From NCBI GenBank assembly GCA_016873775.1, contig VGWC01000002.1, forward strand, positions 4,832 through 68,831: 64,000 bases of DNA, written 5' to 3'. The translations under genes were made by a program, and so were the position numbers. The stretch comes from Ignavibacteria bacterium. Lineage in GTDB: Bacteria; Bacteroidota; Ignavibacteria; UBA10030; F1-140-MAGs086. The notes beneath the pieces are model-generated. The model was not told the DNA's origin. It did no database searches and saw nothing but the letters and a program-made list of their open reading frames with translations. Below are positions 45,340 to 46,945 of this stretch, piece by piece. How positions within the stretch are numbered: the stretch's first letter is position 1; every line of letters begins with the position of its first letter.

Positions 45340-45825
45340 TTATTCGTCTCCAAAAGGATGAGAATAGTATGAACCGGAAAGCAAAAACGGATTGTAGTAA
45401 TATGAGCCAAGTGGAAGTTGGCGATACTGAATTTGAAACAGTACATTATCCCACGGACGAAAATCAAGTTGCGCGCGATTCAAATAAATTCCGGAAACTG
45501 ATTGCTGTCCACGAAAACCTGTTGCATACGGAGAATACATCATACTAACATCGGCGCGCGCAGAAATTAAATCTGAAAAAATATATTGCATTGAGTTCGT
45601 GTATTGACTGATGGAAAGATTTTGCGCTCCGCTTGTTGCATAGTTAATCGAAAAATTATGATGCATTGAAAATTTATTCGGGTCAATCCAACCGAAAAGC
45701 GAATTCGATTGTATCGTTGAGAATCCAGTGTTTTGCGATGGAGTTTGCTGATTTCGAAATTGCGCAAAGGAATTTGTAAGTCCGAAAACAAGAACTACTG
45801 TGATTGCGAATGTAAATTTTTTCAT
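45340..45825 (-). CDS. Hypothetical secreted protein (161 aa)
   Basis: Signal peptide MKKFTFAITVVLVFGLTNSFAQ and a Tyr/Ser-rich, beta-rich composition. Confidence 0.45.
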   Translation of the reverse strand: MKKFTFAITVVLVFGLTNSFAQFRNQQTPSQNTGFSTIQSNSLFGWIDPNKFSMHHNFSINYATSGAQNLSISQYTNSMQYIFSDLISARADVSMMYSPYATGFRGQQSVSGIYLNRAQLDFRPWDNVLFQIQYRQLPLGSYYYNPFLLSGSYYSHPFGDE

Positions 45826-45873
45826 AGTGTTGGTGAATAATTTATGCCAATAATAAAATAGAGAATATCGAAT

Positions 45874-46071
45874 TTATAATCCAAACTTCCTTTTTACTTC
45901 TTCAAGTGTAGTTGTTGAAGCAAATCCCTCTTGCTGTTTTGCTAATCGTAAATCGCGAAGGTCTTCAATATCTTCTAAAGTTTCTTGCAATTTCTTAAAT
46001 TCTTGGTAAGGGAGAACAACAAATTCATTTTTCCCTTCTTTGCTAATTATTTGGGGATGGAGTTCAATCAT
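45874..46071 (-). CDS. Putative antitoxin (Phd/YefM-like C-terminal region), partner of the frameshifted RelE/ParE gene
   Basis: EFVVLPYQEFKKLQETLEDIEDLRDLRLAKQQ parallels the YefM/Phd strand-helix core. It lies 9 nt downstream of the toxin-like ORF on the same strand. Confidence 0.45.
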   Translation of the reverse strand: MIELHPQIISKEGKNEFVVLPYQEFKKLQETLEDIEDLRDLRLAKQQEGFASTTTLEEVKRKFGL

Positions 46072-46080
46072 ATTTTTGAT

Positions 46081-46339
46081 TTATTTATATGCTTCGTTTC
46101 TGTGCTTGATACGATAAATTACCAAACTCGTGCCTTCGATTTCAAATAATACTCTATAGTTTCCTACACGCAAACGATATTCCGGCGTAAAATTCGTCAA
46201 GTGTTTTACATCGCCGAAAAGATTTTCTTTCATCGCTTCTATTTTTTCTACTATGTGTTTCGCGTTCTTCGTTTGTGCGTTTTTCTAAATCTCGCAAAGA
46301 TTTTGGCTTGAAAACAATGTCATAACGCATTTCATTCAA
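46081..46339 (-). pseudogene. RelE/ParE-family toxin gene with a +1 frameshift at an A5 run
   Basis: The first frame gives MNEMRYDIVFKPKSLRDLEK. The +1 frame gives KNAKHIVEKIEAMKENLFGDVKHLTNFTPEYRLRVGNYRVLFEIEGTSLVIYRIKHRNEAYK, the RelE/ParE core. The 259-nt span equals 3n+1. The shift occurs at gaaaaac (plus-strand T5 at 46280-46284). Confidence 0.7.
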
Positions 46340-46399
46340 TCAACGGAAGTAATTTTTCGTGAAAATTATACTAAAATTTATTGAGTTTGCAAAGTTGCT

Positions 46400-46945
46400 C
46401 TACTTCATTTTATGCTGTTTGTGTTTTTTTGTCTCGGCTTTTGGAATATATCCACGTGCTTCGTCGTATTTCGCAACTTGCTCCGCAGTTAAAATTTTTT
46501 TCGTTGCAACATGCGCGATGAGATGAATTGAACGAAGTTCGCCGTGTAGTATTCCTATTTCTTCCGTATTTGATTTCAATGTTTGTTCGTCAATTGAATT
46601 ACTTGCAAACAAACTATCCAATTCTTTTTCCTTCATAATAATTTTATTTCCAGCGCGAACTGCATTTTCACTCATCGTTTTGAAAATCGTTTGGATTGTG
46701 TTTTTCTGTTCATCGGTAATTTTCAAAACGTCGGCAATGTCGAAAACGTGTTTTGGTCCGGGGTAATGATTGAGTTCCGCCGCTTTCGCTAATCCCATTC
46801 CGTTTCCTTCTTTCAGATTTTGAATGTCTTCATCGGAAAGCGATTTAATAGAACGTTTTTCTTCGCCTACATATTTTGAATGTTTATGCTGCGTAAAAAG
46901 AAATGAGTTGAAGAGGACGAAACTTAAAAGAAAAAATGTCTTCAT
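46400..46945 (-). CDS. Periplasmic Spy/CpxP/ZraP-like (LTxxQ-motif) protein
   Basis: Signal peptide, two LTxEQ motifs (LKITDEQK and LTAEQV), and a helical, charged composition. Confidence 0.5.
   Translation of the reverse strand: MKTFFLLSFVLFNSFLFTQHKHSKYVGEEKRSIKSLSDEDIQNLKEGNGMGLAKAAELNHYPGPKHVFDIADVLKITDEQKNTIQTIFKTMSENAVRAGNKIIMKEKELDSLFASNSIDEQTLKSNTEEIGILHGELRSIHLIAHVATKKILTAEQVAKYDEARGYIPKAETKKHKQHKMK

Follow-up and report, generated by a model that had tools for sequence, protein, structure and literature searches.

A RelE/ParE-family toxin gene broken by a one-base frameshift beside an intact Phd/YefM-like antitoxin gene in an Ignavibacteria bacterium: a probable case of recent toxin-antitoxin decay

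In the 64-kb stretch of Ignavibacteria DNA that was analyzed (the window), a toxin gene of the RelE/ParE superfamily is split between two reading frames, and an intact gene for a short Phd/YefM-like antitoxin follows it on the same strand. We consider it probable, at about 85%, that the two genes are a horizontally acquired type II toxin-antitoxin (TA) module, with the toxin gene first, that occupies a host gene's 5' leader and was recently decayed by a genuine insertion of one base. A frameshifted toxin gene beside an intact antitoxin gene is an ordinary, well-known route of TA decay, and the antitoxin is already annotated in GenBank. The interest of the locus is that it gives a clean, datable view of the first step of this decay in a poorly studied phylum, with the toxin struck first, the antitoxin intact, and no secondary lesions. 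It is also an example of a TA cassette inserted in the 5' leader of a gene in a housekeeping neighborhood. The features of the locus are listed in Table 1.

Table 1. Features of the toxin-antitoxin locus and its surroundings (positions in the window)
Feature	Position	Strand	Remarks
Upstream neighbor, 181-aa LTXXQ-like protein	46400..46945	minus	
Promoter-like element TTGCAA, 16 nt, TATAAT	46365..46393	minus	10 of 12 matches to a sigma-70-like consensus
Left copy of possible 6-nt direct repeat AAATTA	46350..46355	minus	Insertion edge
Inserted TA cassette, ~505-515 nt	45844..46347	minus	Edges uncertain by a few nucleotides; absent at the same site in all relatives examined
RelE/ParE-family toxin pseudogene	46081..46330	minus	250 nt; intact family members 249 nt (82 codons plus stop)
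Frame A ORF	46154..46339	minus	61 aa from TTG 46339, 58 aa from ATG 46330
Interval holding the extra base	46255..46286	minus	Flat HMM score across the span; TAG 46287-46285 upstream
A5 run proposed initially as the site of the shift	46280..46284	minus	Probably ancestral; GAA AAA = Glu16-Lys17
CGCG, site favored by comparison with the nearest homologue	46261..46264	minus	Window CGC-G-AAA versus L005 CGC-AAA
Frame B, C-terminal part of the toxin	46081..46284	minus	Core TNFTPEYRLRVGNYRVLFEIEG...YRIKHRNEAY; stop TAA 46083-46081
Short Phd/YefM-like antitoxin gene, intact, 65 aa	45874..46071	minus	NCBI MBM4165410.1
Right copy of possible direct repeat AAATTA	45838..45843	minus	Insertion edge
Conserved 161-aa gene, signal-peptide-like N terminus	45340..45825	minus	Cassette lies in its 5' leader

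RESULTS AND DISCUSSION

The toxin gene is split between two reading frames

The initial annotation, made from the sequence before any database search, described a 5' frame, a second frame in the +1 register starting at GAAAAAC, and a run of five A residues where the two come together. All three observations were reproduced on the minus strand. Frame A, translated from the TTG at 46339, reads MNEMRYDIVFKPKSLRDLEK... and then continues in the wrong register until a TAG stop at 46156-46154. Only the first ~17 to 23 residues of its product are toxin sequence, the remainder being out-of-frame read-through, and the product had no match in Pfam. Frame B, which reads KNAQTKNAKHIVEKIEAMKENLFGDVKHLTNFTPEYRLRVGNYRVLFEIEGTSLVIYRIKHRNEAYK, is closed upstream by a TAG at 46287-46285 and is open from 46284. 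The frame B fragment alone matched the ParE_toxin profile with 33.6 bits over profile positions 24 to 89.

Removal of a single base anywhere in the interval 46255-46286 restores a protein of 82 aa. When one base was removed and the product was searched against Pfam, much as the initial annotation had proposed, the repaired toxin matched ParE_toxin (PF05016) with 39.1 bits over positions 1 to 89 of 89. This score is above the cutoff of 23 bits and the match spans the whole domain, which places the repaired 82-aa sequence in the RelE/ParE superfamily. Such a match could hardly arise by chance. The gene is thus split and its repaired product is a full-length ParE_toxin protein, in agreement with the claim that a RelE/ParE toxin gene was disabled by a one-base disruption of the frame. 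The length first given for the repaired ORF, 85 codons, is correct when counted from the TTG but is three codons too long for the gene. In the alignment, members of the family begin with M-x-Y-x-I-x-F-K-P, and the toxin start is therefore the ATG at 46330 (MRYDIVFKP...), giving an ancestral protein of 82 rather than 85 aa.

Among 5.8 billion protein clusters searched, 1,567 homologues of the repaired toxin were detected, including an 82-aa protein that matched it over 100% of its length (E = 6.9e-33). Length in this family is strikingly constant: 100 of the 120 best homologues are exactly 82 aa long, and the 114 members of 80 to 86 aa among those 120 could be aligned without internal indels, the length variants differing at their termini only. 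None of the 33 columns that are invariant in the alignment is altered in the window toxin. The repaired toxin scored 140.4 to 143.9 bits with an HMM of the 114 homologues, and the homologues themselves scored 135.8 to 154.4 bits.

The closest solved structure is RelE3 of Methanocaldococcus jannaschii (PDB 3bpq; E = 3e-6), with which the RVGNYR and HR..AY motifs align; weaker matches were to Pyrococcus horikoshii aRelE (1wmi) and Mycobacterium tuberculosis Rv2866 (3g5o). Close homologues are labeled "mRNA interferase RelE/StbE" in their sources. These names, together with the match to the RelE3 structure and its aligned motifs, led us to read the toxin as RelE-like. R52, R54, R59, H76, R77, and Y81 are conserved and aligned with RelE3; the score against the NCBIfam RelE_StbE profile (TIGR02385) was only 15.2 bits versus a cutoff of 27.9. 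By analogy with RelE and YoeB, the Arg residues of RVGxYR and the C-terminal H/R-R...Y would have catalytic roles. The repaired toxin resembles RelE-type toxins (PF05016) in its full-length profile match, its YRLRVGNYR...HR..AY core, and its size (about 82 to 90 aa for such toxins). It differs from them in that its gene is frameshifted and consequently cannot encode the fold, and in falling below the RelE_StbE cutoff. It differs from relBE in that the toxin gene is upstream of the antitoxin gene. Judged from its sequence, the repaired toxin would work like RelE-type toxins. The gene as it stands, 250 nt long where intact homologues have 249 nt, has an interrupted domain ORF and does not encode a functional member of the superfamily.

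The antitoxin is intact, and its short form is normal for the family

The initial annotation also reported an intact 65-aa ORF 9 nt after the toxin stop codon with similarity to Phd/YefM antitoxins. The ORF is present, from an ATG at 46071 to 45874, and the similarity held up in profile searches, although narrowly in the first of them: PhdYeFM_antitox (PF02604) gave 29.8 bits, exactly at its cutoff of 29.8, and TIGR01552 (phd_fam) gave 33.1 bits, above its cutoff of 20.8. Both profiles thus assign the protein to Phd/YefM. The match covers positions 26 to 68 of the 74 profile positions, which is the second half of the Phd/YefM domain. The GenBank entry MBM4165410.1 is the exact protein and is annotated [quoted passage not shown]

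Homologues of the antitoxin are mostly 65 to 67 aa long. Nearly all of them start with MIELHP, which indicates that the short N terminus of the window antitoxin is native. The window protein keeps all 5 invariant and all 16 near-invariant residues of its family. An AlphaFold model (mean pLDDT, 76) consists of one beta-hairpin and two helices, one long and one short. This predicted fold corresponds to the beta2-beta3-alpha3 part of Phd plus a C-terminal tail, without beta1-alpha1-alpha2, and the antitoxin does not have the complete N-terminal dimerization/DNA-binding domain (beta1-alpha1-alpha2-beta2-beta3-alpha3). A Foldseek search of the monomer model against the PDB gave no meaningful match, and a sequence search of the PDB gave only a weak one (2odk; E = 0.19). 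The segment ISKEGKNEFVVLPYQEFKKLQETLEDIEDL is what the protein shares with Phd/YefM antitoxins of PF02604 and TIGR01552, as it represents the beta2-beta3-alpha3 part of their domain. In contrast to those antitoxins, the whole 65- to 67-aa family is without ~25 N-terminal residues of the DNA-binding domain, and the antitoxin gene of the window is downstream of the toxin gene.

The pairing of the two genes is not peculiar to the window. In the contexts of the two best-scoring toxin homologues (P0001 and P0002), an 82-aa toxin is followed 13 to 19 nt on by a 66-aa PhdYeFM-like ORF. The genes are thus adjacent and co-oriented, with a gap of 9 nt here, and the pairing is kept in unrelated contexts, as in a type II module. 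Because the toxin-first order and the short antitoxin are normal for the family, neither is a sign of damage. Reverse-order type II modules such as higBA, mqsRA, and hicAB also have the toxin gene first (PMC7167474), but the antitoxin in the window is Phd-like, unlike the helix-turn-helix (HTH) type of HigA, MqsA, or HicB.

The module is inserted between a host promoter-like element and a conserved gene

A scan with the neighboring ArgRS gene recovered 80 syntenic loci in Ignavibacteria and their relatives, and neither the toxin nor the antitoxin was present in any of them. Wherever these loci had enough flanking sequence, the gene order was 161-aa gene, LytR_C, RsfS, ArgRS. The 161-aa protein (81% identical) led to closer relatives, four of which (L098, L094, L023, and L014) have an empty site, with 8 nt between the promoter-like block and the start codon of the 161-aa gene. 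In L098, for example, AACTTTGCGAACTCAGAAAAAATTAGTATCATTTTCACGAAAAATTA-CTACAACT-ATG comes after the LTXXQ gene, its ATG being the start codon of the 161-aa gene, and the other three are alike.

The block AACTTTGCRAACTCA...TAGTATMATTTTC.CGAAAAATTA around the promoter-like element is kept in five genomes. In the window this conserved block is followed by CT, 17 nt, and the ATG of the toxin gene, and the 161-aa gene resumes ~48 nt past the antitoxin stop codon. The promoter-like element that stands directly upstream of the 161-aa gene in the relatives therefore stands upstream of the toxin gene in the window. These comparisons show that the cassette is a lineage-specific insertion, placed in the 5' leader of the conserved 161-aa gene. 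The pair of AAATTA hexamers at its edges may be a target duplication or may have arisen by chance, since the repeat is short and AT-rich. The nearest homologue of the TA pair is beside uvrC, at another locus, in a metagenome-assembled genome (MAG) that also yielded an ArgRS locus without the pair; this location fits horizontal acquisition of the module.

The position of the insertion also bears on how the genes might be expressed. Only ~17 nt separate the insertion edge from the toxin ATG, which would leave no room for a promoter belonging to the cassette. As the cassette begins a few nucleotides downstream of the promoter-like element of the host, the pair and the host gene are probably transcribed together from the host promoter.

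The extra base lies within a 32-nt interval

The initial annotation placed the frameshift at the A5 run. That position is not established, because the shift can be placed anywhere in 46255-46286 and the nearest homologue points instead to CGCG. Frame B begins at GAAAAAC because of the TAG just upstream of it, and its start does not, for that reason, locate the mutation. Locating the indel with the family HMM of 114 homologues was not decisive, as the score is nearly flat over 32 nt: deletion of one base at any position across 46255-46286 gave 140.4 to 143.9 bits, with a steady drop beyond 46254. A 2-nt deletion from an 83-aa ancestor was ruled out because length variants in the family differ at their termini only.

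The nearest intact homologue (L005/P0001) reads GAC TTG GAA AAA CTT at the corresponding place and thus has an identical GAAAAAC in the same register (Glu-Lys-Leu). MAFFT put the single gap ~20 nt downstream of the A run, aligning CGC-G-AAA-CAC of the window with CGC-AAA-CGC of L005. When every repair was compared without gaps, removal of G46261 gave 181 identities to L005 in 249 nt, versus 174 of 249 for removal of a base in the A run, and the BLOSUM score to L005/P0001 was 336 versus 323, with the peak at 46261-46262. A second homologue was uninformative on the site in the same comparison. Position 18 is L, I, V, F, or M in 114 of 114 homologues, and any repair of the window gene leaves an atypical Ala or Arg there.

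We weighed the higher prior for indels in homopolymers against this alignment evidence. The CGCG neighborhood then has roughly an even chance of holding the extra base. Growth of the run from A4 to A5 by slippage during replication, which would leave the rest of our interpretation unchanged, is possible but distinctly less probable, and the other positions of the interval share what remains. Homopolymers have raised indel rates, and the family HMM leans slightly toward the A run, since repair by deletion of an A or a C there scored 143.4 to 143.8 bits, ~2 bits higher than the CGCG repair (141.3 bits). The Ala that such a repair leaves at position 18 is also nearer than Arg to the invariably hydrophobic residue expected. 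However, the nearest intact homologue has GAAAAAC in frame as well, the A-run repair is less like that homologue at both the nucleotide and protein levels, and it loses Lys17, the commonest residue at that position of the family (41 of 114). With about one run of five or more A per 170 nt of coding DNA here, the presence of such a run in a 32-nt interval is unremarkable.

Early decay of the module and the fate of the antitoxin

Under our preferred reading, a minimal type II cassette would have been acquired horizontally by this Ignavibacteria lineage and would have landed in the 5' leader of the 161-aa gene, a few nucleotides past its promoter-like element. A one-base insertion within toxin codons 16 to 25 would then have shifted the frame, so that translation would end at 46154 after 58 to 61 residues and the catalytic C-terminal half of the toxin would not be made. 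The antitoxin gene would have been left untouched and its product would probably still be made. The locus would thus represent an early stage of TA decay in which the antitoxin either is a neutral leftover or persists because it can neutralize related toxins. The frameshift is probably recent because the toxin has no other defects: its invariant columns are all preserved and its repaired HMM score is within the family range. We infer from the broken frame that toxicity has been lost. An internal ATG at 46233 in frame B opens a 50-aa ORF that keeps the conserved core, and its product may have residual activity.

The scenario has well-documented counterparts. Chromosomal TA modules decay through inactive toxin mutants, and orphan antitoxins are found beside toxin pseudogenes (PMC7167474, PMC7354431). 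Examples are the decay of ccdO157 in Escherichia coli, the Caulobacter parE pseudogene next to parD, and the frameshifted yacB of Shigella; as in the window, a point or frameshift mutation has inactivated the toxin of a horizontally acquired chromosomal module and left its antitoxin intact (PMC7354431, PMC7167474). The present case differs in family and host, being in an Ignavibacteria MAG, in that the event appears to be very recent, and in that the cassette lies within a host gene's 5' leader. The suggestion in the initial annotation that the toxin was pseudogenized and the antitoxin kept agrees with the one-base break in the toxin frame and the intact Phd/YefM-like gene next to it. In practical terms, the toxin could be annotated as a pseudogene with an 82-aa ancestral reading and the antitoxin as an orphan in the making.

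Whether the antitoxin has merely outlasted the toxin so far or is actively retained is a separate question. Orphan antitoxins have been proposed to serve as anti-addiction modules (PMC7354431, PMC7167474), and this antitoxin might likewise cross-neutralize related RelE toxins encoded in the genome or on incoming elements, or act as a regulator. Its preservation of every conserved family residue is what would be expected under retention. However, the toxin is equally undegraded apart from its single indel, so that the recency of the event fully explains the intact antitoxin. Furthermore, no paralogous toxin was found in the 64-kb window, and the short antitoxin is without the N-terminal half of the Phd/YefM domain. 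We therefore regard active retention as unlikely.

A sequencing or assembly error is very unlikely

Homopolymer miscounts are frequent on some sequencing platforms, and the initial annotation acknowledged that its interpretation would fail if the break were a sequencing error in a gene that is in truth intact. At least six public contigs encode the identical antitoxin, and four of them (L001 to L004) were retrieved. These contigs are from samples SRR7985589, JGI 3300020221, JGI 3300020220, and SRR16108672, which were assembled separately. All four are identical to the window over 527 nt, frameshift included, and carry GATTTAGAAAAACGCACAAACG; across 4,441 nt, one contig departs from the window at 2 positions elsewhere. 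The contigs with the locus represent one near-clonal population, at least 99.95% identical.

The collection of 5.8 billion protein clusters, which includes those assemblies, holds no intact 82-aa product more than 76% identical to the repaired toxin. As the best full-length match is at this level, no intact allele has been assembled in that collection. Nor is there a general homopolymer error in the window, which has 60 long unbroken ORFs; in its 27 intact long ORFs there are 216 in-frame runs of five or more A and 26 of seven or more. The identical assemblies, the lack of an intact allele, and the unbroken ORFs together make a sequencing artifact very unlikely. The locus was also sought in the metagenome_contigs collection, which is without this organism, and neither a gapped pattern that allows any tract length nor a plain 34-mer gave a match there; as a control, the gapped pattern matched the window and L001 to L004.

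The frame break does not behave as a switch

The other suggestion made initially was that the A run serves as a slippage switch. Full-length toxin would then come from a fraction of transcripts or cells, through slippage in transcription, +1 ribosomal frameshifting, or phase variation at the A5 run. The run does coincide with the frame change, and a small 7-bp hairpin (-3.3 kcal/mol) stops 2 nt short of it. Hairpin-assisted slippage at short runs has been described for an insertion sequence (IS) element of Roseiflexus (PMC5009743). However, bacterial RNA polymerase slips efficiently at runs of ~9 A or T, and slippage at T5C5 was undetectable without a strong adjacent stem-loop (PMC5009743). 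The hairpin at the toxin gene is AU-rich and no better than shuffled sequences in its context (z = -0.53), and hairpin-assisted slippage was rejected because the stem is weak and not significant. Ribosomal +1 frameshifting at AAA-CGC was rejected as well: the CGC that follows AAA is the most used Arg codon here (13.2 per 1,000), so that no hungry-codon pause would be expected.

Phase variation should be visible as polymorphism of the tract, and none was found among the four other assemblies, in which tract length is uniform and every copy carries the same allele. The break is also not conserved, as a single unbroken protein of 82 aa is found in 100 of the 120 best matches, and the shift is possibly not at the A run at all. 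With a run of only five A, no length variation, an insignificant hairpin, a common codon, and uninterrupted homologues, the locus does not have the marks of programmed slippage. No evidence was found in support of a switch, and we consider one scarcely credible.

Possible mobility of the cassette

It is conceivable, but improbable, that the pair exemplifies a class of minimal TA cassettes (~0.5 to 0.65 kb) that have no promoter, move by themselves, insert just upstream of a host start codon, and capture the host promoter. If so, the class would imply an undescribed mobilization mechanism and also an antitoxin without autoregulation, which could for that reason do without the DNA-binding half of Phd/YefM. 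The movement of promoter-less minimal cassettes and DNA binding by short Phd-like antitoxins may be worth more work. A search for terminal inverted repeats or attC-like cassette ends detected only short repeats at chance level, and Rfam gave no matches to the locus or to a structured element in L009. Downstream of the L005 antitoxin, a structured 3' element was not significant (z = -1.26), and such an element is therefore not general in the family. In the P0002 relatives, a strongly structured element of ~150 nt forms the end of a 649-nt segment that is 100% identical in two genomic contexts and begins 1 nt before the toxin ATG.

Intergenic region around the TA insertion

The toxin-antitoxin (TA) cassette, a toxin-first insertion, lies beside a gene whose 161-aa product has no Pfam domain and an N-terminus resembling a signal peptide. 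This gene is directly upstream of LytR_C, RsfS, and ArgRS, and among those of the 80 Ignavibacteria/Bacteroidota-labelled loci that reach far enough upstream it is conserved in this position in nearly all. The gene is strongly syntenic and uncharacterised. On the other side, the cassette is adjoined by a gene for a 181-aa LTXXQ-like protein, which is present in the window and in the empty-site loci L023 and L098 but missing at the equivalent position in L014 and L094 to L097. Because this neighbouring gene is itself variably present, the intergenic region around the cassette is a local hotspot where genes are gained and lost.

In the conserved promoter-like element upstream of the toxin, the -10-like hexamer is TATAAT in the window versus TATCAT in the three closest relatives without the cassette (L098, L094, and L023); the lineage with the TA insertion differs by one base, which brings the hexamer closer to the sigma-70 consensus.

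The 8-mer TGATTGAA occurs at both gene starts of the cassette. The first copy is just 5' of the toxin ATG, inside TTGATTGAATGA, and the second is at the antitoxin start, inside ATGATTGAA, which encodes Met-Ile-Glu. This repeat may be a chance match, or it may be what is left of an antitoxin-like start that lay 5' of the toxin gene.

Locations of features at the TA locus and in homologous loci
Feature	Location	Remarks
161-aa protein gene	window 45340-45825	
8-mer TGATTGAA, first copy	window 46335-46342	minus strand
8-mer TGATTGAA, second copy	window 46063-46070	minus strand
-10-like hexamer	window 46365-46370	minus strand
181-aa LTXXQ-like gene	window 46400-46945	adjoins cassette
TA pair as in L005	L013:1-372	ENA ERZ1292620, coverage about 4
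649-nt TA segment	L009:3710-4358, L010:1667-2315, L012:322-970	identical copies

Homologous TA pairs

Contig L013 carries the same TA pair as L005, the contig with the nearest intact toxin homologue; starting at L005:4034, the two are 99.9% identical. The initial 143 nt of L013 are unrelated to L005, and therefore its toxin lacks the first 11 codons and is called as a 68-aa protein (P0009). Either the toxin was disrupted here in a second, separate event, or the contig is a chimera of low coverage.

The TA pair of P0002, the other of the two best toxin homologues, is on a 649-nt segment that is 100% identical across two distinct genomic contexts, each represented by two assemblies. The left edge of the segment is 1 nt upstream of the toxin ATG, and the right edge is just past an element of ~150 nt that is predicted to fold into three hairpins with an 11-bp closing stem (GCTGATATAAG/CTTATATCAGC). 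The minimum free energy of this element as DNA was -33.7 kcal/mol (z = -4.36), and none of 200 shuffled sequences folded equally well. The element had no match in Rfam; it could be the end of a cassette or a site of recombination.
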